Virus record (IMG/VR): IMGVR_UViG_3300020685_000002
Reading direction: 5' to 3' (one strand)
Length of the DNA stretch: 64,000 bases
Origin: a virus
Lineage: Duplodnaviria; Heunggongvirae; Uroviricota; Caudoviricetes
Shown: positions 1,635 to 57,193 of the stretch, piece by piece
How the letters are laid out: each line of letters begins with the position of its first letter
How positions within the stretch are numbered: the first letter of the stretch is position 1
Made by a program: the position numbers and the translations under genes
The notes under the pieces: generated by a model
Seen by the model: the letters and a program-made list of their open reading frames with translations, nothing else
What the model was told of the DNA's origin: nothing
Databases searched by the model: none

Positions 1635-2046
1635 ACATATAAAAAAAGATTTACCACAAGTTTTGGTATTAAAACGGCAGTTTATTCAAAGATTTCCAAA
1701 TGGACAAATGGTTGCATTATATCATTCTGATCATTTAAATCAATTTGTTACTGTTCCTTTAGACAATTCACAATTTTCTTCTAATACAGTTGAAAGCGTT
1801 TTAGAAAGATTAAATTATATCTCAGAAAATGATGATGTCGAAACATTAGTATTTGAAGATCTATCTGAATTGAATATAAATAAAGAATGTGCTGATATAA
1901 TGTTAGAATTTATTGCATCTCAACCGGAATTATTAGAAGCAATTGTTGTTTCTGATAAAAAATTCTTAGAATTATTAGAACAGGCTGTAAATTTATCATC
2001 AGATATACCGGAATCTGAATCAAATCAGGAGTTAGAAGAACAATGA
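1627..2046 (+). CDS. Prohead core protein, gp67/gp68-like, with an acidic C-terminus.
   Basis: It sits between g20 and g21 as in T4. It is 139 aa with an acidic tail (ESESNQELEEQ) and overlaps the g20 stop. Confidence 0.45.
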   Translation: MAKHIKKDLPQVLVLKRQFIQRFPNGQMVALYHSDHLNQFVTVPLDNSQFSSNTVESVLERLNYISENDDVETLVFEDLSELNINKECADIMLEFIASQPELLEAIVVSDKKFLELLEQAVNLSSDIPESESNQELEEQ

Positions 2047-2693
2047 AATTATTAAACGAATTTACAGAATCGGTCTCAACTAATGTGTTGGTTGAAGAAA
2101 CGACTGGCAAAAAATCTTATAAAATTAATGGTCCATTTATTCATACAGAAGAAGCAAATAGAAATGGTCGTATTTATATAAAAGAACATATGCTTCCGGA
2201 AGTTTCTAGATATAAAAAAGATTTTGTAGATACAAGAAGAGCATTAGGAGAACTTTCTCACCCAGAAGGTCCAGCAATCAACCCTGATAAAGTTTCTCAT
2301 TTAATTACAAAATTAGAATTTGTTGATAATTTGTGCATTGGCGAGGCAACAATTCTAGATACCCCGAATGGTAATATCGTTAAATCATTTATTGATGCTG
2401 GAGTAAATTTTGGCGTCTCAACTAGAGGTCTTGGTTCGATCAAAGAATCTGGCGGTTTGAAATATGTCCAACCAGATTTTCGCTTAGTTACAGTAGATAT
2501 AGTTTTAGATCCATCTGGAAAAGCGTGTTATGTCGAAGGATTGATGGAAGGAAAAGAATGGATGTATGTTGATGGGAAAGGTTGGGTAGAACAATACCTT
2601 GAAGAATCGCGAAAAACCTTAAAAACACTAAAAGCTAAAGATGTTGAACCAATGGCGTTACAAATTTTTGAGAATTTTCTCGCAAAATTATAA
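2043..2693 (+). CDS. 21: Prohead core protease gp21.
   Basis: ALGELSHP....STRGLGS motifs match the T4 gp21 protease. The position is syntenic. Confidence 0.88.
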   Translation: MKLLNEFTESVSTNVLVEETTGKKSYKINGPFIHTEEANRNGRIYIKEHMLPEVSRYKKDFVDTRRALGELSHPEGPAINPDKVSHLITKLEFVDNLCIGEATILDTPNGNIVKSFIDAGVNFGVSTRGLGSIKESGGLKYVQPDFRLVTVDIVLDPSGKACYVEGLMEGKEWMYVDGKGWVEQYLEESRKTLKTLKAKDVEPMALQIFENFLAKL

Positions 2694-2735: not shown

Positions 2736-3827
2736 ATGTCAAAAGAAAAAAATTTGAATCTTTCTGAAGCTGCATTAGAGATTCTGAACACAAACGTAAA
2801 AACAAAAGATGCTAGCCAAGATAAATTCGGCCAAGGCGAAAAATTAAAAGATACAGTAAATAAAAGTGCTTCTGATATCGGAAGTGCAAGTTTTGCAGAA
2901 TATGATTTGAAAGATGTTCCTACTGCAACTGCTCCAGGAGAAACTCCTCCTGTTGGCTCAGAACCAATTAAAAAATTAGCTCCTCAACCAGCAGAAACTT
3001 CAACAGCTGTTGATACTAAAGTTGACCAATTACCTAAAAAGGGAAAATTTGTTAACGAAGAGGAAGAAGTTGATGAAACTGAATCTGAAGAAGAAGTTAA
3101 TGAAGATATCGAAGCATTAATGGCTGGCGAAAACCTTTCTGAAGAATTTAAAAAGAAAGCTACTGCTATCTTTGAAGCTGCTGTTAAAGCAAAAGTTTCT
3201 GAATTAGCTGAAGAATTAGAAGCACAATATGTTGCTCAATTCGAAGAAGCTTATGAAGAAATGAAAGAAGATTTCTCAACAAAAGTAGACGAATATTTAG
3301 ATTACGTTGTTGAATCTTGGTTAGAAGAAAATACTCTTGCTATTGAATCAGGTCTAAGAACTGAAATAGCTGAAGGTTTTATGGAATCATTAAAAGCAGT
3401 GTTCGAAGAGCACTATATTGATATCCCTGAAGAAAAATTTGATGTAGTTGAAAGTTTAACTTCTAAAGTAGAAGTTTTAGAAAAACAAGTCAATGAAGAA
3501 ATGACAAAAAACATTAACTTGAAACAAAAATTGTCAGAACAAAAGAAAGTAGAAGCTCTTCATGCAGTTTGTGAAGGATTAACTTTATCTCAAGCAGAAA
3601 AAATTAAATCTATCGCCGAGGGTGTAGAATTTGTTTCTGATGAAGATTTCGTAAATCAAATGGAAGACATTAAAGAATCTTATTTCTCTACTGCTACTTC
3701 TGTTAAACCCGCTTCGAAAGAATCTTTGAACGATGTAGTAGAATTAATCGAAGAAAAAGAACAAAAAGTTGTTGATCCAGTTATCGCAGCTTATGCTTCT
3801 AAAATTTCTCAAACACTATTAAAATAA
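2736..3827 (+). CDS. 22: Prohead scaffolding core protein gp22.
   Basis: The protein is acidic and Glu/Lys-rich with coiled-coil character. It lies between g21 and g23. Confidence 0.8.
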   Translation: MSKEKNLNLSEAALEILNTNVKTKDASQDKFGQGEKLKDTVNKSASDIGSASFAEYDLKDVPTATAPGETPPVGSEPIKKLAPQPAETSTAVDTKVDQLPKKGKFVNEEEEVDETESEEEVNEDIEALMAGENLSEEFKKKATAIFEAAVKAKVSELAEELEAQYVAQFEEAYEEMKEDFSTKVDEYLDYVVESWLEENTLAIESGLRTEIAEGFMESLKAVFEEHYIDIPEEKFDVVESLTSKVEVLEKQVNEEMTKNINLKQKLSEQKKVEALHAVCEGLTLSQAEKIKSIAEGVEFVSDEDFVNQMEDIKESYFSTATSVKPASKESLNDVVELIEEKEQKVVDPVIAAYASKISQTLLK

Positions 3828-12164: not shown

Positions 12165-12193
12165 TTGACTTTTTTATAATTCTATAGTATAAT
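12165..12193 (+). promoter_or_regulatory. Sigma70-consensus early promoter TTGACT-N17-TATAAT upstream of g55.
   Basis: Perfect -35 and -10 hexamers with 17-nt spacing lie 30 nt upstream of the g55 ATG. Confidence 0.6.
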
Positions 12194-12222
12194 TGGAAAA
12201 AGTGTAATAATATGAGGTTAAA

Positions 12223-32510: not shown

Positions 32511-32511
32511 T

Positions 32512-33435: not shown

Positions 33436-33438
33436 ATT

Positions 33439-34773: not shown

Positions 34774-34776
34774 GTT

Positions 34777-35463: not shown

Positions 35464-35464
35464 T

Positions 35465-36091: not shown

Positions 36092-36092
36092 T

Positions 36093-38363: not shown

Positions 38364-38381
38364 TTAATTGAAGGTGAACTT

Positions 38382-40148: not shown

Positions 40149-40150
40149 TT

Positions 40151-41083: not shown

Positions 41084-41085
41084 TA

Positions 41086-42264
41086 ATGAAAAAATTGAAA
41101 TTGAAATGTGGTTGGAAATTGATGAATAATTCTATCACAATAAAAGATAGAATTAATTTGGCTAAATTTGTTTTATTTTCTGATAGATTCACTATGGCAG
41201 ATAAAGTAAACCAAGTAGAGAAAGAATGGGCTGAATGGGTTGGCGCTAAACATTCTTTATTTGTTTCTTCTGGAAGTACTGCAAATTTTTTATTATTAGC
41301 TGCGATTAAAGAAAAATTTAATTTAAAACAAAAAGATAAAGTTTTAGTTTCTTCTTGTACTTGGATGACAAATGTTTCTCCAGTAATGCAATTAGGTTTT
41401 ACTCCTATCTTTTGTGATGTTTCTTTTGATAATTTCAGTTTTGATGAATCTGAATTAGCATATATTTCAGAAAAACATCCTGACATTAAAGTTGTTTTTA
41501 CAACACACCTTTTGGGATTTAATTCAGATACTAAAATATTAGAATCATATTTTCCAAATGCTATCATATTAGAAGATGCGTGTGAAGCAATGGGCGCAAA
41601 AGCTAATGATGGAACTTATCTTGGTGCAAATTCTTTAGGGTGTACATTCAGTTCATATTTTGGTCATACTATTTCTTCAATTGAAGGTGGTTTTGTTACT
41701 ACAAATGATACAGAATTATATGATTTGATGAAAATGAAAAGAAGTCATGGTTTAGCGAGAGAATCAATATTTTTTGATGATTATGCTGCCAAATATCCTT
41801 ATATTGATAAACAGTTTTTATTTATTACTGATGGTTATAATTTCAGAAACCACGAAATATGTGCAATTTTAGCTTCTTCTCAGATTAAAAGATTAAAATC
41901 CTTTGTTGATATTAGAAGTAAAAATCATAAATTGTTTTCTGAGATGACTGAAAAATATTTAGATAAAATTCAACAGATTAAATTTTATGAAACTAGTGCG
42001 AGTTTTTGTTTTCCTATTATATGTAAGGATGCAGAATCGTTATCTAAATTAAAAACGTTGTTGGTAGAATATGATATTGAATATAGACCAATTTTATCTG
42101 GAAATTTATTAAAACATCCATTTCTAAAAGATTATATATTGACAACGAATCGTTTAGTCGCTAATGTTGATGTATTACACACTAATGGATTATATATAGG
42201 AAATAATCAATTTGTATCTGAAAAACATTTAAAGTTATTGGATAAAGTTTTAAGTTTATTATAA
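41086..42264 (+). CDS. DegT-family PMP-dependent dehydratase, ColD-like (GDP-4-keto-6-deoxymannose 3-dehydratase).
   Basis: A DegT fold is present. His replaces the PLP-Lys in SYFGHTISSIEGG, which is the ColD hallmark. Confidence 0.55.
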   Translation: MKKLKLKCGWKLMNNSITIKDRINLAKFVLFSDRFTMADKVNQVEKEWAEWVGAKHSLFVSSGSTANFLLLAAIKEKFNLKQKDKVLVSSCTWMTNVSPVMQLGFTPIFCDVSFDNFSFDESELAYISEKHPDIKVVFTTHLLGFNSDTKILESYFPNAIILEDACEAMGAKANDGTYLGANSLGCTFSSYFGHTISSIEGGFVTTNDTELYDLMKMKRSHGLARESIFFDDYAAKYPYIDKQFLFITDGYNFRNHEICAILASSQIKRLKSFVDIRSKNHKLFSEMTEKYLDKIQQIKFYETSASFCFPIICKDAESLSKLKTLLVEYDIEYRPILSGNLLKHPFLKDYILTTNRLVANVDVLHTNGLYIGNNQFVSEKHLKLLDKVLSLL

Positions 42265-42271
42265 GGGTTTT

Positions 42272-43117
42272 ATGAATTCAATTAGAGAAAAGGTAAAAGA
42301 ACTTAGTGTTGTTTTTGTAGGTCCAACAAGAGATAGTTCTGGAAATCTTACAAAAATATTTGAGAATATTGAAAGAATTGGTGGACTATTTAAATCTTTT
42401 TCTTGTGTATTTGTGGAAAGTGATTCTTCTGATAATACTTTAGAAATTCTTAAAAATTATAAAAGTGGTCGCGATAATATTCATATACTTTCTTTAGGGA
42501 AATTAGAAGATAGAATTAATTCTAGAACATGTAGGATTGCTACAGCAAGAAATGTTGGGATTGAATATTGTGAACAAAATAATATCTTAGATACTCATGA
42601 TTATTATATTCATATGTGTGTTGATGATGTTAATAGTGAAAAGATTGAAGAAGAAGATTTCTTAAGTTGCTTTAAATACGACATATCTTCTTGGGAAGGT
42701 ATGACAGCAAATCAGTTAAATTATTATGATATTTGGTGTTTACGAGCAAAAGGTTGGGTTGAAAATGATTGTTGGTATGCAATTCATAATAGACCTTCTT
42801 ATATGTCTTATGATGAAGCATTTATAATGTATGTAGGATCTAAATTTATACAAATTCCAAAAAATTACGGTTTAATTGAAGTTGATGCTGCTCATGGCGG
42901 TTTTGGAATCTACAAAAGTTCTTTTGCTAAAGGTTCTCGGTATAGAGGTTCTTCTGAAGCTGGTAATGCAGAAGAATGTGATTTAGTAAATTTCTGTAGT
43001 GATGTTAAGAAGAAAGGTGGAAGAATATTTATAAACTCAGAATTGATGAATATGAATAATGTAAATAATAGACATGATACCACAGTTCAAAGTTTACGAT
43101 CTTTAGGTAAATTGTAA
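42272..43117 (+). CDS. Hypothetical protein (glycan island).
   Basis: 281 aa ORF with no clear motif. Confidence 0.35.
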   Translation: MNSIREKVKELSVVFVGPTRDSSGNLTKIFENIERIGGLFKSFSCVFVESDSSDNTLEILKNYKSGRDNIHILSLGKLEDRINSRTCRIATARNVGIEYCEQNNILDTHDYYIHMCVDDVNSEKIEEEDFLSCFKYDISSWEGMTANQLNYYDIWCLRAKGWVENDCWYAIHNRPSYMSYDEAFIMYVGSKFIQIPKNYGLIEVDAAHGGFGIYKSSFAKGSRYRGSSEAGNAEECDLVNFCSDVKKKGGRIFINSELMNMNNVNNRHDTTVQSLRSLGKL

Positions 43118-43902
43118 TGGGAAATATTACTAATACAAATATTCATGGGTCGTGTCTATTAGGGTCTCAAATGTTTGAGTATTCTTATTTAATTGCTGTT
43201 TCTTTAGAAAATCCTGGAGTTGTTCCAGGATTTTATTTAAAAAATCTTCCTGGAATGTTTGGTTTGTTAATAAATTTTCCATTTATACATAAACCTAAAA
43301 TTTTTGAAGGAGAATGTGATTATTCTGGTATAAACTACAATCCTTCTGATGTTTTAGCTTTTGATCGTAATTATGATATACATTTCAATTTCGATTATAG
43401 CATTTTTCATAAACATAAAGAATATTTGTTAAATTTATATACATTTTTGCCAGAAATATATTCTAATTGTAATACATGGATAAAAGATAATTCTTCACCA
43501 GACGAATTGTTAGTTTCAATCCATTTTAGAAGAGGCGATTATTTATCGATTTCTTCATTAAACCTTTCTTTAGAATATTTTTATGGAGCAGTTGAAACAA
43601 TTAAAAATAAACTTCCAAATTCAACATTAAAATTTGTGTGTTTTTCTAATGATATTACATGGGTGAAAGAGAAATTTGTTGGTATAGATAATATGATATT
43701 TGTTGAATCGTTATCTGATCCTGAACAAATGTGTTTAATGTCTTTATGTGACCATAATATCATTGCAAATAGTAGTTATAGTTGGTGGGGTGCATATTTA
43801 AATAAGACACCTGAAACAATAACTATTTGTCCATCAAGTTATGGTAGTGCAGATGTAATAAGTTATTATCCTGATGAATGGATAAGAATGAACGTGCTTT
43901 AA
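43117..43902 (+). CDS. Alpha-1,2-fucosyltransferase-like (GT11 family).
   Basis: GT11 motifs HFRRGDY (HxRRGD) and SSYSWWGAYL. Confidence 0.65.
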   Translation: MGNITNTNIHGSCLLGSQMFEYSYLIAVSLENPGVVPGFYLKNLPGMFGLLINFPFIHKPKIFEGECDYSGINYNPSDVLAFDRNYDIHFNFDYSIFHKHKEYLLNLYTFLPEIYSNCNTWIKDNSSPDELLVSIHFRRGDYLSISSLNLSLEYFYGAVETIKNKLPNSTLKFVCFSNDITWVKEKFVGIDNMIFVESLSDPEQMCLMSLCDHNIIANSSYSWWGAYLNKTPETITICPSSYGSADVISYYPDEWIRMNVL

Positions 43903-43913
43903 TTGAGATTAAT

Positions 43914-44918
43914 ATGATAATAGAATCTGATGTAAATAATATAATAAAATCTATAGATTTTGAAAAACTAAGGAATAAATCTATCTTAATCACAGGATCT
44001 TCTGGGTTATTAGGAATTTATTTTGTTTCTTGTTTAAAAACAATACAGAAAGAATATAATATTGATGCTTATTTTTGGATAAAAAGTGATATTGATTCAA
44101 ATTTTAAATCCTTTTTTGATTTTGATTGTCATATAATTAAGGAAGATATTAGCGATCTAAAAGCATTCGATTCATTACCTATGTTTGATTTTATTATTCA
44201 TTCATCAGGTTATGGTCAGCCAGATAAATTCTTAGAAGATCAGATAAAAACCATCCAAATAAACACCACAGCTACAATTAATTTATTTGAAAAATTAAAT
44301 CCAAATGGAACATTTTTATTTTTAAGTTCTAGTGAAGTTTATAATGGTTTAGATAAGTTTTCTGTGTCAGAAGATGAGATCGGGGTATCAAATACAACTA
44401 ACCCTAGAGCGTGTTATATTGAATCAAAGCGTTGTGGTGAAGCTATTTGTCATATTCAAAAAAATATGGGTAAAGATGTAAAAATTGCTAGATTGAGTTT
44501 AACATATGGTCCAGGAACAAAACCGTTTGATACTAGGGTTGTTAGTTCTTTGATTCAAAAATCTATATTAAATGATTCTATAGAATTGAGAGATAGGGGC
44601 GAAGCTATTAGAACTTATTGTTATATTTCTGATGTAATAGAAATGATGTGGAATATTATTTTGCATGGAAAAGAAGTGACTTATAATGTTGGTGGAAATA
44701 CTACATTTAGTATATTTGAAATGGCAAATATTATCTCTACTAAAACGAATAAACCAATACTTTTGCCAGAAACATCAAAAACGTTAACTGGCAGCCCTAA
44801 AGTTGTTAATATTAATATTGATAAGTATATATCCGAATTTAACAAAACTTCATTCATTGCTCTTGATGAAGGTTTAAATAATACAATTCTTTGGCAACAA
44901 CATATATACAAAATTTAA
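43914..44918 (+). CDS. NAD-dependent epimerase/dehydratase (SDR). The track ORF begins at 43878, but the ATG at 43914 is the likely start.
   Basis: ILITGSSGLLG Rossmann motif, SSSEVYNG and catalytic YIESKRCGE (YxxxK). Confidence 0.55.
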   Translation: MIIESDVNNIIKSIDFEKLRNKSILITGSSGLLGIYFVSCLKTIQKEYNIDAYFWIKSDIDSNFKSFFDFDCHIIKEDISDLKAFDSLPMFDFIIHSSGYGQPDKFLEDQIKTIQINTTATINLFEKLNPNGTFLFLSSSEVYNGLDKFSVSEDEIGVSNTTNPRACYIESKRCGEAICHIQKNMGKDVKIARLSLTYGPGTKPFDTRVVSSLIQKSILNDSIELRDRGEAIRTYCYISDVIEMMWNIILHGKEVTYNVGGNTTFSIFEMANIISTKTNKPILLPETSKTLTGSPKVVNINIDKYISEFNKTSFIALDEGLNNTILWQQHIYKI

Positions 44919-44998: not shown

Positions 44999-45006
44999 TA
45001 TAAATA
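44999..45006 (+). promoter_or_regulatory. Late promoter box TATAAATA.
   Basis: GATTTATAAATACTT lies about 30 nt upstream of the ATG at 45036. Confidence 0.45.
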
Positions 45007-45035: not shown

Positions 45036-45968
45036 ATGAAATCTTTTAGACAATTTATCGTAGAATCTGTTAGACAAGGTTTACCACACATTTCTACAAT
45101 GACACATGAACAATTCGGTAATCTTACAAAAGGTGGAAAAGTTCATATTAATCATGTAACAGAAAAAACTGATGGTCAAACAATGGTTTTTGGGCATGAT
45201 GAACATGGTTTTTATACTCAATCTTCTGGTTCTGGAAATGAAAAAATGCGAGCTCCGGAACATTATGCTGAAAGAGCAAAACGTAGAGCAGAAGAAACAG
45301 GAAAACCATTTGATCCAACTTCGTCAAACGCATTTGGTGATATCCATAAGCACCTCCAAAATAATAAAGCCCTCCAAGAACACCTAAAATCAACATATAA
45401 AAAAACTGGTAATGAAGTAAAAGTTAGGGGAGAATCTTTTTATAAACCTTGGGGTAGACCTAGCGAAGTTCCTGGAGAAGTAAAATTTGTTGGCACTTCC
45501 TATGACCCTAGTCATATGGGAACGGTTGGTAAATTTGTGATTCATAGTAAATTGCCAGAAAATCAAGGTCATGATTTAGAACATTTTAAAAAGAATTTAT
45601 CTGATAAAAATATAAATTTTGATGATGATATTATAGAGCATAAGTCTGGTCATGTTGATGTTTCTCCAGAAAAGAAAGATTTTGATGATTTAAATCATGA
45701 ATTATTAAAATCAAGAAAAACTAAAAAAAATTCAGAAGATAAAGAAGTTGAGACTGCTAAATTTAATGCAATAAAACAAAAAGTTTCTGATAAAGTTGAT
45801 TCTCACATCAAATCTCAAAATATTAAACCGAAATGGGGTACAGGTACTGAAGGTGCTGTAATACACCCTCCAAAAGAAAATCCTGATGCTCCAAGATTTA
45901 AAGTGACAAGTGATGCATTTAGAAAATATAAAAGTTCCGATGAATCTAAAAACTTATTAAAGAGATAA
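45036..45968 (+). CDS. Capsid-targeted (CTS-bearing) internal protein, possibly an Rnl1-like RNA ligase.
   Basis: The N-terminus MKSFRQFIVE|S matches the T4 CTS MKTYQEFIAE. Candidate ligase motifs are KTDG (motif I), VKFVGTS (motif III), EGAVIHP (motif IV) and RFKVTSDAF, which resembles the T4 Rnl1 motif V HFKIKSDWY. Confidence 0.5.
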   Translation: MKSFRQFIVESVRQGLPHISTMTHEQFGNLTKGGKVHINHVTEKTDGQTMVFGHDEHGFYTQSSGSGNEKMRAPEHYAERAKRRAEETGKPFDPTSSNAFGDIHKHLQNNKALQEHLKSTYKKTGNEVKVRGESFYKPWGRPSEVPGEVKFVGTSYDPSHMGTVGKFVIHSKLPENQGHDLEHFKKNLSDKNINFDDDIIEHKSGHVDVSPEKKDFDDLNHELLKSRKTKKNSEDKEVETAKFNAIKQKVSDKVDSHIKSQNIKPKWGTGTEGAVIHPPKENPDAPRFKVTSDAFRKYKSSDESKNLLKR

Positions 45969-45972
45969 TTAA

Positions 45973-47448
45973 ATGCTAAATTTTAAACAATTTTTACAAG
46001 TTTTAACAGAAGGCGGGAACATTAAGATTGGAGAATCAGAGGCTAATCCAATTCATATTACACCTGAAAATAGAAAATCTGTTACTTCTGATATTGGTGG
46101 TTTTTTACATGGATTGAGTAATTCTCATAAAATGGTTCATGGTTCTCATTTATTTGGAAATAATTCTTCGGCACTTGATGATGGGTCAGCATTTTCTGGT
46201 TCCACTCATCATTTATTTGATAAAACGATCAGTGATAAAGAATTCGCAAAACATAAACCTGTTGTTGGTGATATTGATGTAAAAGTTCCAAAACAACATC
46301 TTGCTACATTAGAACATCATTTAGTTCCAGGAAAACAAATAGGAAAATATACTGTTGTTGGTGTTAAACATGGAGCTGGTGGACATCATGCTTTAATAAA
46401 ACACGAAAATGGACAAATACATCAAATAGATTTTGAAGGTTCAAATTATGAAAATGATAAACCATCAGATTTTGATAAATTCGCACATAGTTCTAATTGG
46501 AAAGATGTAAAAGAAGGAATTAAAGGCGCACATCATAAGATGCTATTGAATGCGATTGGAACTGATAAACACAAATTTTCAATTCTTTATGGTTTAGGTT
46601 CTAGAGAAGGAACTGACCCAAAATGGGAAAACAATAAAAATAAAATATCTTCTACATTATTTGGAGAAAAAGCTCCAGTTAAAAATTTAGAGTCGTTTCA
46701 TGGATTAGTTAAAAGTATTAAAAATCATATTCCAGAAGAAAAACATCAAGAAATTTATGACAAATTTAAAGATTCTGCAAAATCTTCTAGAGGAATAAAT
46801 TTTTCTTCTGCATTATCTCATATGAGAAAACATCTTAATGTTCATGATAATACTATTCAAGAATCTGTTGAAGAAGTACATCATGCATCAGTAGTGCCAA
46901 TAACTGGGTTTGTTCCAATTTCTCATGAAGGGCATAAATTGGATTTAGGAAATACCCTAAATAGATTACCTGGAAGTAAACATATCGGAATTTCAGGAAA
47001 ATCTGATGCTTATTCTCCAGAAGAAAGAAAGGATGTTCTTGAAAGGCAATGGGGAAAAGGAGTAACGGCACATAATGTTTCCGGTGCTGGGCAAACAATA
47101 AGAGCAGCATATGATTCTTTACCAAAAACAGGAAAAAAAGTATTGCATTTATTGGTGGGTCATGATAGAAAATCCCTTGCCGATGGATTAAAGTCTTCTT
47201 TAGAAGCAGGAAAACTTAAGGAAATGCATGGTTTAGCTTTTGATGAAATACACATTCATCATCCAGAAGATACAAAAAGAAGTCATGGTATGAGTGGAAC
47301 AAAAATGAGAGAAGCTGCAGCAGCAGGTAACATAGAAGAATTCCATAAACATTTAGGTCCAAATTTTACTAGAAAAGAAGCTGAAGAACATATGTCAAGA
47401 TTCCAAACTGGTATTAAAAATGGAACAATTCCTCTAAAAAGAAAATAA
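45973..47448 (+). CDS. CTS-bearing His-rich internal protein.
   Basis: The N-terminus is MLNFKQFLQVLTE|G. The protein carries many His clusters (HGAGGHHALIKHENGQIH). Confidence 0.5.
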   Translation: MLNFKQFLQVLTEGGNIKIGESEANPIHITPENRKSVTSDIGGFLHGLSNSHKMVHGSHLFGNNSSALDDGSAFSGSTHHLFDKTISDKEFAKHKPVVGDIDVKVPKQHLATLEHHLVPGKQIGKYTVVGVKHGAGGHHALIKHENGQIHQIDFEGSNYENDKPSDFDKFAHSSNWKDVKEGIKGAHHKMLLNAIGTDKHKFSILYGLGSREGTDPKWENNKNKISSTLFGEKAPVKNLESFHGLVKSIKNHIPEEKHQEIYDKFKDSAKSSRGINFSSALSHMRKHLNVHDNTIQESVEEVHHASVVPITGFVPISHEGHKLDLGNTLNRLPGSKHIGISGKSDAYSPEERKDVLERQWGKGVTAHNVSGAGQTIRAAYDSLPKTGKKVLHLLVGHDRKSLADGLKSSLEAGKLKEMHGLAFDEIHIHHPEDTKRSHGMSGTKMREAAAAGNIEEFHKHLGPNFTRKEAEEHMSRFQTGIKNGTIPLKRK

Positions 47449-47450
47449 CT

Positions 47451-48356
47451 ATGCAAAAATATCAAGCAATCTTTGTTATTGGTAGTCCAGGTTCTGGTAA
47501 AGATGTTATTATCAGAGATACAATTTCAAATTTCAACATTGTTGAATTTACATCAACACAAATAGATGAGATGTTATCTGATGACTCTGTATTTAAAAGA
47601 GCAAAATACGAAAAAAGAAATTCTCTTTTAGAAAGAAAATCTATTTTAGTAACCGCAAATTCTTTTGACTTGGGATTTATTCTTACAAAATCTGTATTAG
47701 AATCTGTTGGATATACTCCACATTTAATTTTTGTTGAAGCCAATCTTTCTGTTTCTTATGATAGATTACATAATAGAAATAATCTTAAAGAGTCTCTTGA
47801 AAGAATAAGTATTGGAAATAATAATAAATCTTCTATTTTAGAATTATTTGATTCTTTGTTTGTTGTTGACAATTCAGAAAATTTAGATTTAACTGAATCA
47901 AGAGAATTTATTTCAGATATTTTGAGCGAATTATCATTTAAATCGGATCTAACTGTTGAGCGTGTATTAAATGTAAATTTGAGAGATAAATTACAAAAAA
48001 CATCAAAACCAACAATATCAAGACAAGTTCCTGGACCTGCTGCAATAGTTTTACCTATTATTGATAGTTTTGATTCTAAAGAAAAGAAAAAAACAATAAA
48101 AAAATACCCAAAAACACCAAGTTATTTTTTTGATGGTAGTGGAGATCAACAACCAAACATTGCGTTGGGTGAAGCGGAAGATTGGCCTATTGCTTCTCCA
48201 GGATTTGGTGATGCAATGATGGGAGCTCCTGGACAACAATCTTCTGCTCCAGTAACTAATTTGGGTTCTGATCAACAAAAACAAGATATAAAAAAAGTTT
48301 TGAATAAAATTAAAAAAATTCATTTTAAAACTGCAATACCAAAACAAATTGGATAA
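47451..48356 (+). CDS. P-loop kinase, polynucleotide-kinase-like.
   Basis: AIFVIGSPGSGKDV resembles the T4 Pnk kinase motif IILTIGCPGSGKST. There is no CTS. Confidence 0.4.
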   Translation: MQKYQAIFVIGSPGSGKDVIIRDTISNFNIVEFTSTQIDEMLSDDSVFKRAKYEKRNSLLERKSILVTANSFDLGFILTKSVLESVGYTPHLIFVEANLSVSYDRLHNRNNLKESLERISIGNNNKSSILELFDSLFVVDNSENLDLTESREFISDILSELSFKSDLTVERVLNVNLRDKLQKTSKPTISRQVPGPAAIVLPIIDSFDSKEKKKTIKKYPKTPSYFFDGSGDQQPNIALGEAEDWPIASPGFGDAMMGAPGQQSSAPVTNLGSDQQKQDIKKVLNKIKKIHFKTAIPKQIG

Positions 48357-48388
48357 AATATTTTAAATCATTTAAGTAAGGAATTTTA

Positions 48389-48928
48389 ATGAAACTTCAA
48401 GATATACAAAAAATGTTAAGTGAGAGAAAATTAACAAAAGCAGAATCAAAAAAGAAAGAAGAAATTGCTCAAGCAATGGAAAAAGAACATCCTGGGATGG
48501 GTTCGACTCCAGAAGGAATGTCAAAAAAAATGGCAATTGCAACTGCTCAAGCAAAAAAGTGCTGTGAAGAAATAGAAGGCGAATTAGAAACTGAAGAAAC
48601 TTTAGATGAAGTTTCTAATTATGATTTAGTTGTAAACTATTATAGACATTTAGGTTTAGATCCATATAAACTACGTGGCGTAGTTGGCAAACAATTAAGA
48701 ACAAAAATTAAAACTTCTCCAGCATTTCAAGCATGGGCAAGAATTAATTCTAGTTTTGAATATGAAAAGAAATATACTCAAATTATCGAAAAAATAAAAG
48801 AAGCTAAAAAAGAAGCAAAGGGAAAAGTTCAAATTGATTTTTTTGGATATCCTGAATCAACAGCAAATACTTCTAATTCAGATAAAGATATTGCTCAAAC
48901 TGATGATAATTTCATAACCCCAAATTAA
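48389..48928 (+). CDS. Hypothetical Lys/Glu-rich protein.
   Basis: 179 aa ORF with a ribosome-binding site (AAGGAA). Confidence 0.4.
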   Translation: MKLQDIQKMLSERKLTKAESKKKEEIAQAMEKEHPGMGSTPEGMSKKMAIATAQAKKCCEEIEGELETEETLDEVSNYDLVVNYYRHLGLDPYKLRGVVGKQLRTKIKTSPAFQAWARINSSFEYEKKYTQIIEKIKEAKKEAKGKVQIDFFGYPESTANTSNSDKDIAQTDDNFITPN

Positions 48929-48982
48929 AATTTTTAATAAATACTATTATAATTTTTATCATATTAAAAAAGGAATAAAACT

Positions 48983-49555
48983 ATGTCAGGTTGGAAAAAT
49001 ACAGACGCTCAAGCAAATAACGAACCATCTTATATTACCCATATTGGGATGCCACAACCAATAACAAATAATTATAGCAACAATACGGTTTTAGTTGATG
49101 CTTCTCGTTTAGCAAATGCTAATGTTCAATTTGGAGTTTCTTCAAAAGGAACATCACATACTGGTTGGGTTCATTACCAACATGGAACAGGTCCTTTGGC
49201 TTCTATTACTGTTGCTAATGTTACTCCAGGACTTGTATATTCTAATGATTATTTAACTATTGTTGGCGCAAATACAGCTTCTTTTGTTAATACTCCTTAT
49301 GTCGCAGCTAATGCTCAAATTATTGTTACTGGTGCAAACACAATTACCATTCAAATTAATAGTGTCGGTTCTGGTTTTATTCAAGACCCAACTGTAGTTT
49401 CTTCTACTTCAGGTAATGCAAATAATGCAACTTTAGTATTTACTGGTAAAGCAGGCGGAAGAGCTAATAGAGTTAAATCTGAAGTTTTAGTTGCTTTGTC
49501 ATCTCCTACTTCAACAAATGCTAATGGCGCTGAACCTTGGTTCCATGGCGTATAA
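48983..49555 (+). CDS. Putative virion structural protein, beta-rich.
   Basis: A Thr/Asn/Val/Gly-rich 190 aa protein with a ribosome-binding site (AAAGGAATAAAACT ATG). An AATAAATA late-promoter-like box lies upstream. Confidence 0.4.
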   Translation: MSGWKNTDAQANNEPSYITHIGMPQPITNNYSNNTVLVDASRLANANVQFGVSSKGTSHTGWVHYQHGTGPLASITVANVTPGLVYSNDYLTIVGANTASFVNTPYVAANAQIIVTGANTITIQINSVGSGFIQDPTVVSSTSGNANNATLVFTGKAGGRANRVKSEVLVALSSPTSTNANGAEPWFHGV

Positions 49556-49558
49556 TTT

Positions 49559-49945
49559 ATGAAGTCGTTTAAAGAATTTAAATCGTATCTACAGGAGCAT
49601 CAATCTCCTGTAGCATATATTGATACTACTGGAACTCAAGATATCGCTATTCCTGAAATTCGTAATGAATTAAACCGCCATATAAGTTTGATTTTTCGTC
49701 AAAGTTTTGTGACAGTTGAATCTGCAGTGCAAAGATTAGCAAAACTTTTATCTATGTATAGTCTTGATATTCCACAAGTTGATTCAAATGATAAAGATTC
49801 GGATACATTAAAAATAATTGTTGGGCATAATAATACAAAATGGGACGAATTTGATGGAAAAGTTGAAAATGATAACCCATGGATTTTAATATTTTCGTAT
49901 AAATTAGAAGACGGATTGTATAAGTGCTCAGCTAAAATAAAATAA
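49559..49945 (+). CDS. Small CTS-bearing internal protein.
   Basis: The N-terminus is MKSFKEFKSYLQE|H. It is 128 aa. Confidence 0.5.
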   Translation: MKSFKEFKSYLQEHQSPVAYIDTTGTQDIAIPEIRNELNRHISLIFRQSFVTVESAVQRLAKLLSMYSLDIPQVDSNDKDSDTLKIIVGHNNTKWDEFDGKVENDNPWILIFSYKLEDGLYKCSAKIK

Positions 49946-49951
49946 TATATT

Positions 49952-50338
49952 ATGTTTGATGAATTGACTCCAGAAAATTTTGTATTATTTGCTGCAAAAC
50001 ACTATTGGTCTATACACTATTCAATGGCTGAGTTTGAATCAGATTTACAAAGAATAGTGTATATAAAAAGGCTTTTGAAGAAATACAAAAAAACTGGAGT
50101 CGTTTCAGAAAGGTTAATTCTTAATCATCTTATATTATTGTATAATGTCTTTGAACCGACCGTTGCTGTTAATAGAATGTTATTTTTTAAAATAGATTCA
50201 GATTGTTACTCTAGTTTAAAAACGTTTCTGGTATATTTAAATAGGATACCAGAAACAATTATAATAAATAATAATATAGTTGTTTCTTCAGATATTCAAG
50301 TAGATATGAATGTTGCAAATTTATTAAGGGTTTTATGA
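49952..50338 (+). CDS. Hypothetical protein.
   Basis: 128 aa ORF. Confidence 0.4.
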   Translation: MFDELTPENFVLFAAKHYWSIHYSMAEFESDLQRIVYIKRLLKKYKKTGVVSERLILNHLILLYNVFEPTVAVNRMLFFKIDSDCYSSLKTFLVYLNRIPETIIINNNIVVSSDIQVDMNVANLLRVL

Positions 50339-51174
50339 AAGGTTTTAAACAATTTGTATTAGAAAAAGTAGAACATGAAAATCCGAATGCCGGAAGTTTA
50401 CACGTTCTAGATGTTGATGATACATTAGTACACCCAAAAGCACAAATCCATGTTGTTCAAAATGGAGAAAGAGTTAAATCGCTACATAATTCCGAATTTA
50501 ATACCCACAAACTAGAACCTGATCAACACTATGATTTTAGTGAATTTAGAAATTCTGATACGTTTAGCAAATCTGCTCCAATTCAAAAAATGATTTCTAA
50601 AGTAAAAGCAATCCATAAGAATATCTCAAGTAATCCAAATCATAGAATTATTATCAATACTGCTAGATCAGATATGGATAATAAACATACATATCTTAAT
50701 ACTTTTAAGAAATTTGGTCTTCCGATTAACGATATACATGTATATAGAGCTGGTAATGATACTGGATCGGATACAGTTGCTGTTAAAAAGGCAAATGTAA
50801 TATCAAAAATATTAGAAAAACAACCATATAAAAAAGTTCATGTATATGATGACGGAAAAGAAAATTTAGATGCCGTTCATAAATTAAAACAAAAACACCC
50901 TGAAACAGAATTTCATACCTATCATGTTCAACATGATGGTTCTGTTAAAAAATACAAACCTACAAATTTAAATGAAGATGGTGGTGCTGCAGGCGGTATT
51001 GGCGGTGGTGGTGGAAATACTGTCGGTGGCGGAGCAATAGCTGGAGTTGGGGTAAATAATCCTTCTGTTGGGCCAAATCAAGGGGAACCTGGAGTTTTTC
51101 CAAAATATAAAAAAAGAAAATCGGATTTTCCAAAAAGTCCTGTCTTAACACAAATTCTTGCGAGAAAAAACTAA
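50335..51174 (+). CDS. CTS-bearing HAD-superfamily phosphatase (PNK 3'-phosphatase-like) with a Gly-rich C-terminal tail.
   Basis: The N-terminus is MKGFKQFVLEKVE. HAD motif I reads VLDVDDTLV (compare T4 Pnk VIFDVDGTL), motif II reads IINTARS, motif III supplies a Lys, and motif IV reads VYDDGKENLD. The C-terminus has GGAAGGIGGGGGNTVGGG. Confidence 0.6.
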   Translation: MKGFKQFVLEKVEHENPNAGSLHVLDVDDTLVHPKAQIHVVQNGERVKSLHNSEFNTHKLEPDQHYDFSEFRNSDTFSKSAPIQKMISKVKAIHKNISSNPNHRIIINTARSDMDNKHTYLNTFKKFGLPINDIHVYRAGNDTGSDTVAVKKANVISKILEKQPYKKVHVYDDGKENLDAVHKLKQKHPETEFHTYHVQHDGSVKKYKPTNLNEDGGAAGGIGGGGGNTVGGGAIAGVGVNNPSVGPNQGEPGVFPKYKKRKSDFPKSPVLTQILARKN

Positions 51175-51175
51175 A

Positions 51176-51715
51176 ATGGACAAATATCTAAATAAAATTA
51201 AATCAATCGTTGATAATAATGGTTTTGAGCGTCATTATAAAGAAACAGAAATTGTTGAATCTGTTGATGATACGTTAGAGAGAGTATTGTTTGAAGCAAG
51301 AAGTCCAGCCAATCCCCCAGAAGAAGCTAACGATCCATCTTCAAAAGAAGGAATTTCAAATACTGTTGCTAGTGAATTTTTTGCTAGAGCAAGAGCTTTA
51401 GCGACTGTTACTCATTTTGCACATTTAAGTACAGATTCGTTTTCTGAACATATAGCTTTAGCTACATTTTATGAAGAAATTGTTGAATCTATTGATACTT
51501 TTTGTGAAGCGTATATTGGAAAATATGGTAAATTTATAAATCTTCCTCCAATCGCTGCTGAGATGCAACAAGCAGTTGATGCAATAATTGAATTTAGAGA
51601 TTGGATGGATAAGAATCGTAGTTTAATTACTGATGATAGTTCTCTACAAAATATAATAGATGAAACAGAACAATTATGTAATAGTACAGTATATAAATTA
51701 CAGAAATTAAACTAA
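51176..51715 (+). CDS. Hypothetical protein.
   Basis: ATG at 51176 directly after the upstream stop. It is 180 aa. Confidence 0.4.
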   Translation: MDKYLNKIKSIVDNNGFERHYKETEIVESVDDTLERVLFEARSPANPPEEANDPSSKEGISNTVASEFFARARALATVTHFAHLSTDSFSEHIALATFYEEIVESIDTFCEAYIGKYGKFINLPPIAAEMQQAVDAIIEFRDWMDKNRSLITDDSSLQNIIDETEQLCNSTVYKLQKLN

Positions 51716-54877: not shown

Positions 54878-55876
54878 ATGGTTATGGGAATAAGAATACT
54901 AACTCCTAAAACAATTTATACAACGGATTATCCTACTGCTATAGAATTTGCAGAAAAACAAGCTGAGGTATTTTGGCTTCCTACTGAAATTGAAGTAGAA
55001 AAAGATCTTCATGAGTTAAAAACAAATTTTACTGAAGCAGAATATCATGGTGTTATTTCAACATTAAAATTATTCACTCTTTATGAATTAAATGTTGGAA
55101 ATGATTATTGGCAAAATTATATTTCTAAAGTTTTTCCGAGACCAGATATTCAAAGAATGGCTGCAACATTTTCTTTTATGGAATTGGGTGTTCATGCACC
55201 ATTCTATAATAAAATTAATGAAGTTCTTGGTTTAGATAATGATGAGTTCTATACTGATTATTTAAATGATGAAGTTCTTGCAAATAGAATGGCTTGGATA
55301 GGTAAACGAACTGAGAAAAGAAATACTGTTTATGACGTATTAAAATCAGTTGGTATTTTCTCTATGATTGAAGGTGCAATTCTTTATTCAAGTTTTGCTT
55401 TCTTGAAACATTTCAATTCTGCAGGTAAAAATAAATTAGTAGCTATTAATGCTGGAATCAATTTCTCTGCGATTGATGAAACTTTACATTCACAAGCTGG
55501 CGGTTGGTTATTTAGAACATTATTAAAAGAAGCTAAAGAAGATGGTCAAGTAACAGATATATTTGTTGAAGAATTAATTCGAGAACTTGAAGAAACTGCT
55601 AAAGTGATATTAGAACACGAATCAATAATTATTGATAAAATATTTGAGAAAGGTCAAATTAAAGGTATTACTGAAAATCAATTGAAACGGTTTGTTGAAT
55701 CTAGATTAGATATTTGTTTAGAAAATCTTGGATATAAAGGAATTTTTAAACCAACGTATAATCCGATTAAATCTTGGTTCTATAAAGATCTAGAATCTTC
55801 TACGTTGCACGACTTTTTTTCGTCGCAAGGTTCTGATTATAATAGAAATTGGATTGAAAATAAATTTAAATGGTAA
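54878..55876 (+). CDS. nrdB: Ribonucleotide reductase small subunit (class I beta).
   Basis: Diiron ligand pattern (E..H, SFAFLKHF, ETLHSQ) and a C-terminal tail. Confidence 0.8.
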   Translation: MVMGIRILTPKTIYTTDYPTAIEFAEKQAEVFWLPTEIEVEKDLHELKTNFTEAEYHGVISTLKLFTLYELNVGNDYWQNYISKVFPRPDIQRMAATFSFMELGVHAPFYNKINEVLGLDNDEFYTDYLNDEVLANRMAWIGKRTEKRNTVYDVLKSVGIFSMIEGAILYSSFAFLKHFNSAGKNKLVAINAGINFSAIDETLHSQAGGWLFRTLLKEAKEDGQVTDIFVEELIRELEETAKVILEHESIIIDKIFEKGQIKGITENQLKRFVESRLDICLENLGYKGIFKPTYNPIKSWFYKDLESSTLHDFFSSQGSDYNRNWIENKFKW

Positions 55877-57018: not shown

Positions 57019-57193
57019 TTTTGTGTACTGAAATATGACGAAAATATTCCTAGTTCATTTGGCGGAACTTATAGAGAAAATATTACTACTAAAAAGATTC
57101 AAAAATTACTTATAGATAAGTTTGGTGCAATTGATAAACAGTTGGGTTCATATGCTAAACACCATACAAATAAAATAAAAGAGGAAATTGAAA

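Follow-up and report, generated by a model that had tools for sequence, protein, structure and literature searches.

Between positions 45036 and 51174 of the window (the whole 64-kb stretch of DNA analysed here) lies a block of genes, four of which (ORFs 45036, 45973, 49559 and 50335) encode products whose N-termini resemble the T4 capsid-targeting sequence (CTS). The octamer TATAAATA precedes the first gene of the block (Table 1). Further copies, at 2698 and 8095, lie 33-38 nt ahead of the scaffold gene and the tail-tube-like gene. It shows no enrichment across the window, and its role as a late promoter is therefore only suggestive. Elsewhere in the window are genes for a gp21-type protease, the enzyme expected to cleave such leaders, and for a gp22-type scaffold, the docking partner expected for capsid-targeted proteins.

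Table 1. Features of the block and of the head genes, in window coordinates.
Feature	Position	Strand	Remarks
Portal gene	51-1634		
gp21-type prohead core serine protease	2043..2693	+	Pfam Peptidase_S77 E 1.3e-26; between portal and scaffold genes
gp22-type scaffolding core protein	2736..3827	+	Pfam T4_CASP E 1.7e-65; phrog_237
TATAAATA, T4-type late-promoter consensus	44999..45006	+	30 nt upstream of ORF45036
RNA-ligase-like covalent nucleotidyltransferase, 310 aa	45036..45968	+	
Leader MKSFRQFIVE, ligase-like protein	45036..45065	+	Best T4-CTS match in window; predicted cleavage after E10
Leader MLNFKQFLQVLTE, 491-aa protein	45973..46011	+	Predicted cleavage before invariant GGN
Pol-beta-superfamily nucleotidyltransferase domain, aa 15-293 of 491-aa protein	46015..46851	+	
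HxGH (HIGH-superfamily) nucleotidyltransferase domain, NMNAT/PPAT-like, aa 300-490 of 491-aa protein	46870..47442	+	
P-loop kinase-like protein, domain aa 1-175, low-complexity tail, no leader	47451..48356	+	Walker A invariant; Zeta_toxin/AAA_33 family matches
179-aa protein, starts MKLQDIQKMLSE, possible variant leader ending LSE	48389..48928	+	Membership assigned from position only
190-aa protein, N-terminus MSGWKNTDAQANNEP	48983..49555	+	
128-aa leader-bearing protein, leader MKSFKEFKSYLQE	49559..49945	+	
DUF7207 protein, leaderless, synteny marker	49952..50338	+	Pfam DUF7207 E 1.1e-37
HAD-superfamily phosphatase	50335..51174	+	Leader MKGFKQFVLE 50335-50364; core aa ~20-205; Gly-rich/basic tail 50950-51171
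DUF5856 / Dps-ferritin-like protein	51158..51715	+	Pfam DUF5856 E 1.7e-21; phrog_858; block end, membership uncertain

The four CTS-like starts had been picked out in a preliminary description, and all of them are present as it gave them. They are also the only ones of their kind: in a six-frame translation of the window the motif M[KLR]x[FY][KRQE][QE][FY] occurs exactly four times, each time at one of these starts. In an a-priori test, all 67,981 stop-free 10-mers were scored by BLOSUM62 (mean -7.9, sd 6.5) against the T4 leader MKTYQEFIAE, which was checked against T4 ipII. The start of ORF45036 ranked first (score 32), that of ORF50335 tied for second (27) and that of ORF49559 tied for sixth (22).

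Across three unrelated families, with about 100 metagenomic homologues in each, the leader is kept in 69-89% of members; the homologues listed are 46-100% identical to the window protein and retain the leader at the protein level. A search for gp21 cleavage sites, proposed earlier as a check, found [LIVMFA]-x-E ahead of the core in at least 99% of homologues in all three families, and the modal predicted cut falls after residue 10, which is where T4 has it. In the ligase family 95-106 of the 107 homologues keep leader plus [LI]xE, E13-G14-G15-N16 of the 491-aa protein is invariant in 33 homologues, and a related locus carries the leader MKTYKEIIAE, identical to that of T4 at 8 of 10 positions. 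Residues 1-13 of the ligase-like protein and 1-14 of the 491-aa protein (pLDDT <50 in both) form the sole very low-confidence N-terminal stretch in two otherwise confident AlphaFold models. The evidence supports a function of these leaders as a T4-type capsid-targeting and cleavage module.

The first product, ORF45036, had been described as Rnl1-like. The motifs on which this was based (KTDG, EGAVIHP and RFKVTSDAF) are present and invariant among homologues, and in two structural searches RNA ligases rank above DNA ligases. The protein belongs to the ligase/capping nucleotidyltransferase superfamily, where RNA ligases are its best structural matches; a placement outside this superfamily would have refuted the earlier idea, which is thus not refuted. 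A specific kinship to T4 Rnl1 is not established: profile comparisons of the block proteins with T4 Rnl1 and Pnk gave motif-sized alignments only, with no sequence kinship found beyond single motifs. Unlike T4 Rnl1, the protein has no Rnl1 C-terminal domain, and its motif V carries Thr where Rnl1 has the second Lys.

The 491-aa protein is His-rich, as noted before. Described earlier as having no obvious counterpart among the T4 internal proteins, it does have counterparts. It joins a Pol-beta-type nucleotidyltransferase to an HxGH nucleotidyltransferase of the NMNAT/PPAT type, the latter being the virion-associated "cytitidyltransferase" of cyanophages (see below). Both folds have invariant catalytic residues, including the HxGH and SGTxxR motifs, and the HxGH fold is closest to NMNATs. 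At one related locus (L003) the protein is split into two genes, with its own leader on each half, and in fusion proteins the junction retains [ILM]xE-GGN. The Pol-beta domain recalls RlaP, the Pol-beta nucleotidyltransferases that accompany RNA ligases in RNA repair systems (PMC7824862, PMC12776372), in its intact GS...DxD...D signature and in adjoining an RNA-ligase-like gene, to whose product it is fused in some relatives. It differs from RlaP in its HxGH fusion and capsid-targeting leader, and a Pfam search gave no match to the RlaP family PF10127.

In the phosphatase, ORF50335, all four catalytic motifs are intact (D26-x-D28, T109 and D172-D173 invariant, K152 nearly so), and VLDVDDTLV is invariant across homologues. 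It matches phrog_415 "polynucleotide kinase" (E 2.2e-7). Its family members hit Acid_phosphat_B (10/30), DUF2608 (7/30) and HAD_SAK_2 (1/30), and the weak hits point to class B acid phosphatases and to 5'-nucleotidases. Its description as a HAD phosphatase with a Gly-rich tail is borne out; a specific relationship to T4 Pnk comes down to a motif-sized alignment. The P-loop of ORF47451, described before as Pnk-like, is present (GSPGSGKD, invariant among homologues) and the leader is absent, as reported; Zeta_toxin is matched by 16 of 17 family members and AAA_33 by 14 of 17. The kinase-like protein and the phosphatase are encoded by separate genes, and the former is leaderless, whereas T4 Pnk is a single kinase-phosphatase polypeptide.

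These domains recur as fusions of ligase, Pol-beta and HxGH, of ligase and HxGH (also in a 591-aa protein of S-PM2), and of HxGH and P-loop, the last including leader-bearing proteins of other lineages that are distant homologues of ORF47451. Every fusion observed centres on the HxGH domain, and the sequences suggest that the ligase-like, Pol-beta, HxGH and P-loop domains are functionally linked.

Less can be said of the remaining genes. The 179-aa protein has no significant family match in Pfam or PHROGs, and the 128-aa protein has none in either and no phage tblastn match. At its N-terminus the 190-aa protein resembles T4-GC425, a virion "S-layer domain protein" found in S-SM1 and HTVC008M, and it occupies the same position before DUF7207, although the two gave no significant alignment. 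Homologues of the DUF7207 protein are S-SM1 SSM1_196 (E 1.4e-28) and a product of related locus L005 (18851-19240). In L005 a Ferritin-family gene follows the P-loop gene.

The HxGH domain is homologous to the cyanophage core "cytitidyltransferase" T4-GC190 (S-SM1 SSM1_190, P-SSM4_155; profile E ~1e-7), with common GRFxPxxxGH-type and SxxKMR motifs. T4-GC190 has a leader of the same type, MKKFSAFLNE/KE (MKKFSAFLNE in S-SM1), and lies in the same neighbourhood, downstream of replication genes and including DUF7207, the marker that links the S-SM1 block to the window by synteny. Most cyanophages have the HxGH domain on its own, after an N-terminal region of ~120 residues; in the window it lies behind the Pol-beta-type domain and a ligase-like gene precedes. 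According to the sections of PMC3037559 covered here (text and Table S8), mass spectrometry detected the S-SM1 protein in purified virions (25 peptide counts), together with its neighbours GC1453, GC1454, GC1455, GC425 and GC426; S-SM1 GC1455 starts MLSFKELQE. The same sections report that a T4-GC190 homologue was not detected in S-PM2 virions, class T4-GC190 as structural without giving it a role, and mention neither its leader nor a packaged-enzyme interpretation.

The predicted packaging of the leader-bearing proteins is well supported. Like the T4 internal proteins IPI, IPII, IPIII and Alt, which are CTS-directed, gp21-processed and injected, they have a leader of ~10 residues ending in [LI]xE, are encoded in a cluster of highly modular leader-bearing genes, and share their genome with a gp21-type protease and a gp22-type scaffold. 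Cleavage and injection are predicted here. There is no sequence relationship outside the leader, and the T4 proteins are small non-enzymatic inhibitors (e.g. IPI* against GmrSD), whereas the window cargo consists of 34-55-kDa enzymes with nucleotidyl- or phospho-transfer active sites.

The ligase-like protein, the double nucleotidyltransferase and the phosphatase all start with the kind of tag that loads proteins into the T4 head, so that they probably enter the host along with the DNA, as a ready-made counter-defence kit. We suggest, with a probability of about 0.5, that the block of this marine T4-like myovirus encodes enzyme-type internal head proteins, delivered before phage gene expression and acting against host defence by RNA-end repair and HxGH-based cofactor supply. 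RNA repair is a plausible function. In T4, Pnk (PseT) and Rnl1 (RnlA) repair tRNA and so counter the PrrC anticodon nuclease; compared with that system the window adds two nucleotidyltransferase domains, and we know of no established RNA-repair role for HxGH nucleotidyltransferases. Comparative genomics of phage RNA repair links RNA ligases with Pol-beta (RlaP) nucleotidyltransferases, PNK-type kinases and HAD phosphatases (PMC7824862). The packaged-enzyme concept itself has precedents in MuF- or portal-fused effectors and polyvalent proteins, which are delivered with the DNA and act before phage gene expression, with mostly ARTs, Macro, NADAR, Nudix and 2H domains as cargo (PMC9503650). These travel by fusion or within giant polyvalent proteins, whereas the window has separate modular enzymes with a short T4-type leader that is predicted to be cleaved.

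The same packaging might instead serve mainly to re-synthesize NAD+ or other adenylylated cofactors against NAD+-depleting defences. The HxGH domain would then be an NMN adenylyltransferase forming a NadR-like pair with the P-loop protein as nucleoside or nicotinamide-riboside kinase, the HAD protein a nucleotide phosphatase, and the ligase-like and Pol-beta enzymes would use or modify the product. HxGH plus P-loop is the architecture of the NAD salvage enzyme NadR, and the literature presents phage NadR/NadM systems as a means of countering NADase defences (PMC7824862, PMC9503650); because the pairing is NadR-like, a NAD-type role competes with pure RNA repair. NadR and NadM (a HIGH nucleotidyltransferase with a P-loop kinase or a Nudix domain as fusion partner) share with the window the NMNAT-like fold and the adjacency or fusion of a P-loop domain. 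The invariant HxGH motifs, the NadR-like architecture of distant homologues, the weak 5'-nucleotidase match of ORF50335 and the position of HxGH as fusion hub, most widely conserved component and cyanophage core gene point the same way. Nevertheless, we consider this role unlikely. Neither domain is similar in sequence to E. coli NadR (compared for both), the P-loop family matches Zeta_toxin/AAA_33 and not the NadR kinase family, the window ORFs that were scanned include no Nampt/NadV-like gene, and no partner of the Nudix or Nampt type was observed. The leaders set window-type proteins apart from NadR/NadM, as does their linkage to ligase-like and Pol-beta domains, a fusion that a NAD role leaves unexplained, and a few hundred packaged enzyme molecules would be an odd route to restoring a bulk metabolite.

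Rather more doubtful is that the leader is no packaging signal here, or that packaging is incidental, the N-termini having become common by recombinational cassette shuffling at a shared 5' sequence. The enzymes would then work in the producing cell's own cytoplasm, for instance by repairing RNA, by serving nucleotide metabolism or by helping virions to assemble, as T4 RnlA does in tail-fibre attachment. T4 Rnl1 and Pnk, early cytoplasmic enzymes without a CTS, unlike the leader-tagged window enzymes, count in its favour, as do the leaderless P-loop protein, the L003 locus, whose ligase-like protein has a four-residue leader (MINE) only and whose block adjoins tail genes, and the S-PM2 proteomics. 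But the leader lies outside the predicted folds, is conserved at the protein level over deep divergence in three unrelated families with its terminal [LI]xE, and is gained by each separately encoded domain, and S-SM1 virions contain leader-bearing homologues. Action within the head or on the phage's own genome, where the proteins might seal or process the packaged DNA at nicks and ends or serve as charge-neutralizing or structural core components, is improbable: several members have basic or Gly-rich tails with which they could bind DNA, and T4 internal proteins are embedded in packaged DNA (PMC3012670), but RNA ligases outrank DNA ligases in structural searches, five enzyme types with invariant active sites are hard to square with a purely structural role, and ATP-dependent chemistry is unlikely within a sealed capsid.

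In the preferred reading, that of injected enzymes for RNA-end repair and cofactor supply, the block would be transcribed late, and N-terminal leaders of ~10-13 residues would dock four products within the prohead, in its gp22 scaffolding core, before a gp21-type protease removes them after [LI]-x-E. The cargo would comprise the RNA-ligase-like adenylyltransferase, the bifunctional nucleotidyltransferase, the phosphatase and the 128-aa protein. The P-loop protein would be counted with them; it has no leader, is encoded mid-block, and in other lineages is fused to a leader-tagged HxGH domain. The mature enzymes would be ejected with the DNA into the next host and be active before any phage gene is expressed. 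Broken RNA ends would be healed and sealed by kinase, phosphatase, terminal nucleotide addition and ligation, with NAD+ or another adenylylated nucleotide cofactor coming from the HxGH domain. The net effect would be to weaken tRNA-cutting or nucleotide-depleting defences of the host.

The window encodes four proteins whose N-termini resemble the capsid-targeting sequence (CTS, or leader) of T4 internal proteins, MKTYQEFIAE, a sequence confirmed against the annotated T4 ipII gene. These are a ligase-like protein (ORF45036; ORFs are named by start coordinate), a 491-aa protein (ORF45973), a 128-aa protein (ORF49559) and a HAD phosphatase (ORF50335). All ORFs and N-termini were reproduced as given in the preliminary description. 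Translated in all six frames, the window contains the pattern M[KLR]x[FY][KRQE][QE][FY] at four places, each of them the first codons of one of these ORFs. Since this pattern was itself derived from the four ORFs, an independent scoring was run, in which all stop-free 10-mers in all frames were compared with MKTYQEFIAE (n = 67,981, mean -7.9, sd 6.5). Here the start of ORF45036 ranks first (score 32), that of ORF50335 is tied for second (27) and that of ORF49559 is tied for sixth (22). The resemblance to the T4 CTS is real and not due to chance. The leaders are about 10 residues long with an [L/I]-x-E end, and both a gp21-type protease and a gp22-type scaffold are present in the window. At the predicted gp21-type cleavage sites, the leaders end in IVE, LTE, LQE and VLE, followed by S, G, H and K, respectively.

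The one intergenic gap of any size, before ORF45036, contains the T4 late-promoter consensus TATAAATA 30 nt upstream of that ORF; the scaffold and tail-tube-like genes are preceded by the same octamer with comparable spacing. Because the motif is not enriched in the window (12 observed, 16.7 expected), it is only suggestive of late expression of the leader-bearing block (45036-51174). A scan for sigma-70 promoters and terminators was uninformative in this AT-rich DNA.

The window has a GC content of about 29% and belongs to a T4-like myovirus. The capsid genes are followed by a T4 replication module (helicases, a gp46/47-like nuclease, clamp loader, DNA polymerase and UvsX), with primase and ribonucleotide reductase (RNR) downstream of the other replication genes. 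With its counterparts in the nearest isolates (S-SKS1, the pelagiphages Mosig and HTVC008M, and Methylophilales phage Melnitz), the capsid protein shares only about 62% identity, and the block has no nucleotide match by megablast among 50,697 phage records; the window thus represents an uncultured marine T4-like lineage. Several other features of the region were noted. The dioxygenase and GT1 glycosyltransferase genes, both on the opposite strand and placed between the capsid gene and the tail-tube and UvsY genes, may form a pair for hypermodification of DNA bases. Between the replication genes and the leader-bearing ORFs, directly upstream of the block, lies a sugar-nucleotide and glycosyltransferase island. 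The RNR large subunit gene appears split into two ORFs about 170 nt apart, both of which match the same large-subunit PHROGs over consecutive profile regions.

Coordinates of features in the window and in related contigs and phage loci
Feature	Sequence	Coordinates	Strand	Match or remark
T4-type portal	window	51-1634
Prohead protease, gp21-type	window	2043-2693		Peptidase_S77, E 1.3e-26
Scaffolding core, gp22-type	window	2736-3827		T4_CASP, E 1.7e-65
Major capsid protein, gp23-type	window	3862-5184
GT1 glycosyltransferase	window	5242-6582	-	adjoins dioxygenase (pair, 5242-8013)
Tet/JBP-family 2OG-Fe(II) dioxygenase	window	6595-8013	-	Tet_JBP, E 7.6e-28
Sugar-nucleotide/glycosyltransferase island	window	30197-44918		~15 kb: GDP-mannose 4,6-dehydratase, several epimerases, DegT-type aminotransferases, GT2, GT11 and GT-D-like enzymes
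P-loop gene (ORF47451)	window	47451-48356
Gly-rich tail, P-loop gene	window	47976-48353
HAD phosphatase gene (ORF50335)	window	50335-51174
Gly-rich tail, HAD gene	window	50950-51171
Dps/ferritin-like protein	window	51158-51715		DUF5856, phrog_858; closes the block
RNR large subunit, first ORF	window	55870-57018
RNR large subunit, second ORF	window	57188-58189
Separate Pol-beta and HxGH genes with a 394-aa ORF between them	L003, 198-kb contig	10918-13760		394-aa ORF: GIY-YIG homing endonuclease-like N-terminus (YVYVGLDKVSGKFYIG)
61-aa leader-bearing ORF	L005, 214-kb contig	9211-9396		start MKTYKEIIAE
174-aa leader-bearing ORF	L005	9396-9920		start MKTFKQYLNE
Ferritin-family gene	L005	13492-14013		after P-loop gene
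Block-like gene run	HTVC008M (L007)	3167-8411		all annotated hypothetical
DUF6267 protein	HTVC008M (L007)	4218-5450
DUF6267 protein, P-SSM4_154	P-SSM4 (L008)	1851-2777
DUF6267 protein, SSM1_189	S-SM1 (L009)	3296-4270

Large-scale searches returned more than 220 metagenomic homologues for each of ORF45036, ORF45973 and ORF50335. In a census of the 120 best matches per family, a start of the form M..aromatic..aromatic was found in 95 of 107 ligase-like proteins, 93 of 104 HAD proteins and 78 of 113 proteins of the 491-aa type, most of the others in the last family being shifted by one residue. Among about 320 homologues in this census, at least 99% carry [LIVMFA]-x-E directly before the conserved core, and the modal predicted cut follows residue 10, matching the T4 CTS in length. 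Across homologues the leader drifts in sequence and length while its terminal Glu and the core that follows (IRQGLPHI, GGN or LHxFDVD) are fixed, as would be expected of a propeptide. Two confident AlphaFold models (pLDDT 90.5 and 89.1) have low confidence at the N-terminus only in residues 1-13 and 1-14; the possibility that the leaders form part of the folded domains was rejected, as they are the only N-terminal segments with a pLDDT below 50.

The strongest indication that the leader is a functional module comes from related loci. In contig L003 an inserted ORF, which resembles a homing endonuclease at its N-terminus, splits the 491-aa protein into two genes, each with its own leader (MIKFSQFKKTTFLTE followed by GGN, and MNFIQKFLIE followed by S). 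Other contigs have in-frame fusions of the ligase-like and 491-aa proteins, with [ILM]-x-E-GGN preserved at the junction. Two small leader-bearing ORFs sit between the HAD and ligase-like genes of contig L005, the start of the 61-aa ORF being identical to the T4 CTS at 8 of 10 positions, and the block therefore holds additional small leader-bearing cargo. In the HAD homologue P0292, an inserted domain of about 120 residues separates leader and HAD core; this domain has an HExxH motif and a weak Peptidase_M78/IrrE match, and the 174-aa ORF begins with a sequence similar to it. The leader-bearing 128-aa ORF49559 of the window has no detectable relatives in known phages or families (Pfam, PHROGs and tblastn against 50,697 phage records).

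ORF45036 (310 aa) has the nucleotidyltransferase fold of the ligase/capping superfamily. The motifs proposed for it earlier are confirmed, and its conserved residues correspond to motifs I (EKTDG, with the catalytic lysine), III (GExF), IV (EGxVxH) and V (FKxT), in the right order and on predicted strands. Invariant in 30 sequences are E43-K44-T45-D46-G47, G-E133-x-F135, E272-G273-x-V-x-H277 and F288-K289-x-T291, with Thr in place of the second Lys of motif V. The Pfam family RNA_ligase (PF09414) is matched by 10 of 30 family members at E <= 0.1 (best 1.1e-5); ORF45036 itself has no Pfam, PHROG or PDB sequence match, tblastn against the 50,697 phage records found nothing, and neither did the family profile against PDB sequences. 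A PDB match to an antibody light chain was spurious. Kinship to the T4 Rnl1 family is not borne out: hhalign aligns only 24 columns (motifs IV-V) at a probability of 0.85%, and the protein ends about 20 residues past motif V, lacking the C-terminal tRNA-specificity domain. For these reasons ORF45036 is not a member of the Rnl1 family.

The 491-aa protein is predicted to consist of two domains joined by a disordered linker. The N-terminal domain shares with RlaP a Pol-beta fold with catalytic GS, DxD and D; it matches the family phrog_19290, has homologues in Campylobacter, Vibrio and Xanthomonas myoviruses, and, in an RlaP-like association, adjoins the ligase-like gene, to which it is fused in relatives. 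There is no match of ORF45973 to the RlaP family itself (PF10127) at E <= 1. The C-terminal domain has the HIGH-superfamily Rossmann fold of NMNAT-type enzymes (NadR, NadM, NadD), with HxGH and ISxTxxR-type motifs; no similarity of this domain to E. coli NadR was detected. ORF45973 has no Pfam match and, as a single sequence, finds nothing meaningful among PDB sequences; its relatives match CTP_transf_like.

For ORF50335, the assignment as a HAD phosphatase is borne out by conservation of all four motifs (D26-x-D28-x-T30, T109, K152 and D172-D173). It matches phrog_415, "polynucleotide kinase", with an E-value of 2.2e-7; hhalign of its family with T4 Pnk aligns motif I only (probability 34.6%). 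Matches within the family are to Acid_phosphat_B (class-B acid phosphatase) and DUF2608, and one member matches the RNA-repair family HAD_SAK_2. Neither the single sequence nor the family profile yields anything meaningful among PDB sequences, and tblastn against the 50,697 phage records finds one uncultured phage. In T4 Pnk, kinase and phosphatase form one polypeptide, whereas the window has separate genes about 2 kb apart. The candidate kinase, the leaderless ORF47451, lies 2 nt from the 491-aa ORF; programmed frameshifting to join the two was considered from their reading frames and this spacing, and is not claimed. The P-loop of ORF47451, described earlier as Pnk-like, is its only resemblance to T4 Pnk (hhalign probability 83.6%, over 25 P-loop columns only); the family profile matches the PDB entry 1ly1 with an E-value of 0.9. 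With Zeta_toxin matches in 16 and AAA_33 matches in 14 of 17 family members, ORF47451 is, as judged from its sequence, a P-loop kinase-fold protein. Because only single motifs align when profiles are compared directly with T4 Rnl1, T4 Pnk and E. coli NadR, family-level kinship to these three proteins is rejected or left open.

In relatives, these domains are shuffled and fused, with the HxGH domain as the hub. Ligase-like, Pol-beta and HxGH domains are joined in P0150, P0211 and P0218; in P0051, and by fold in a 591-aa protein of S-PM2, a leader-like linker connects ligase-like and HxGH domains; and P0140 has a GNAT-like insert between Pol-beta and HxGH domains. P0292 combines leader, M78-like HExxH domain and HAD, and P0374, P0382 and P0394 combine leader, HxGH domain, P-loop and a Gly-rich/basic tail. 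The P-loop gene of the window, which has no leader, is thus the separated second half of a protein that carries one in other loci. Gly-rich, low-complexity tails with a terminal basic patch (e.g., GGGAIAGVG...GEPG...KKRK) are shared by the HAD protein, by a few HAD homologues and by fusions of HxGH domain and P-loop; outside the window they occur in P0243, P0337, P0374, P0382 and P0394. Most HAD homologues have no such tail.

The HxGH domain is homologous to a "cytitidyltransferase" conserved in T4-like cyanophages (cluster T4-GC190): the profile of the window family matches P-SSM4_155 (1e-7) and SSM1_190 of S-SM1 (8e-8), and the related HxGH and P-loop protein P0374 has tblastn matches in 562 phage records. 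In purified S-SM1 virions, T4-GC190 and one further cyanophage-core protein were detected for the first time (Sullivan et al. 2010, PMC3037559), T4-GC190 with 25 peptide counts (Table S8, PMC3037559). SSM1_190 starts with MKKFSAFLNE. The S-SM1 virion proteins also include GC1453, GC1454, GC1455, GC425 and GC426 (Table S8, PMC3037559), which correspond to SSM1_188, _191, _192 (start MLSFKELQE), _195 and _197. Downstream of gp41 helicase and MazG, their genes lie together as a single contiguous block that is syntenic with the window via the DUF7207 gene (SSM1_196 and ORF49952, E 1.4e-28). Neither a leader nor packaged enzymes are mentioned in the main text or in the supplementary tables searched of that study (PMC3037559), and a full-text literature search found no paper tying "capsid targeting sequence" to cyanophages or pelagiphages.

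Immediately upstream of the virion "cytidyltransferase", cyanophages and HTVC008M carry a DUF6267 protein (T4-GC71) with an HLEHxED...KWDG motif. DUF6267 takes the position of the ligase-like gene, yet the two are not detectably related; it has no PDB sequence match and no literature on it was found. In HTVC008M, a cultured pelagiphage, the arrangement is comparable to the window block: a 352-aa ORF (start MLSFTGYSNLSE), DUF6267, a 220-aa P-loop protein (start MIPFILKE) and a 596-aa HxGH protein (start MKTLKELL) with a C-terminal DUF5824.

Packaging of the window proteins by a T4-type leader is a well-supported prediction, based on inference and on the proteomics of one homologous family, in S-SM1. 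That the catalytic residues of all five enzyme types are invariant argues for active enzymes. Comparative genomics of phage RNA repair has listed Rnl1/Rnl2, RlaP, PNK kinase and HAD phosphatase as its components (PMC7824862). A ligase, a Pol-beta nucleotidyltransferase, a P-loop kinase and a HAD phosphatase are thus published RNA repair parts, which supports the packaged end-healing and sealing kit of the preliminary description. We give a probability of about 0.5 to packaged enzymes that perform RNA end repair, together with adenylyl-cofactor supply. The HxGH domain falls outside the RNA repair scheme, and in its fold and its fusion to a P-loop kinase it corresponds to the NadR-type enzymes of NAD+ salvage, with which phages counter NADase defences; a packaged system serving mainly NAD-type salvage is therefore the next reading in rank, although an improbable one. 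Somewhat less probable still is that the proteins are not packaged, or act in the producing cell, a reading to be set against the S-SM1 virion data. That they are packaged and act on the phage's own DNA, or structurally, is the least likely reading.

The T4 CTS has been familiar mainly as the tag of a few small inhibitors of coliphages and as an engineering tool. CTS-directed internal proteins, head-packaged enzymes and the cyanophage cytidylyltransferase in virions are each already known separately, the packaged enzymes including Alt, MuF fusions and polyvalent proteins (PMC9503650). What appears to be new is the link between the three, the types of cargo (RNA-ligase-like protein, Pol-beta and HIGH nucleotidyltransferases, HAD phosphatase) and how widely the system is spread among marine T4-like phages. 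More tentatively, we suggest that these phages, including abundant cyanophage and pelagiphage lineages, might pre-load their heads with a modular, leader-addressed kit that is injected with the DNA and would repair cleaved tRNA and/or restore NAD+ before any phage gene is expressed. Its parts would be an RNA-ligase-like sealing enzyme, a terminal nucleotidyltransferase, an NMNAT-type adenylyltransferase, a kinase and a phosphatase. If true, such a kit would be a first-minute counter to abortive-infection defences, and would explain the long-unassigned, virion-associated cyanophage core gene for "cytitidyltransferase".

The finding suggests that, across the most abundant myoviruses of the ocean, the T4 address tag serves to package real enzymes. 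It offers a concrete, testable function for a cyanophage core gene that was detected in virions in 2010 and never explained, and a sequence rule (a start of M-x-x-aromatic-x-x-aromatic, then [LI]xE) for injected effectors in uncultured T4-like genomes. We propose that RNA-repair or NAD-type counter-defence may be delivered as protein, as opposed to being expressed after entry.
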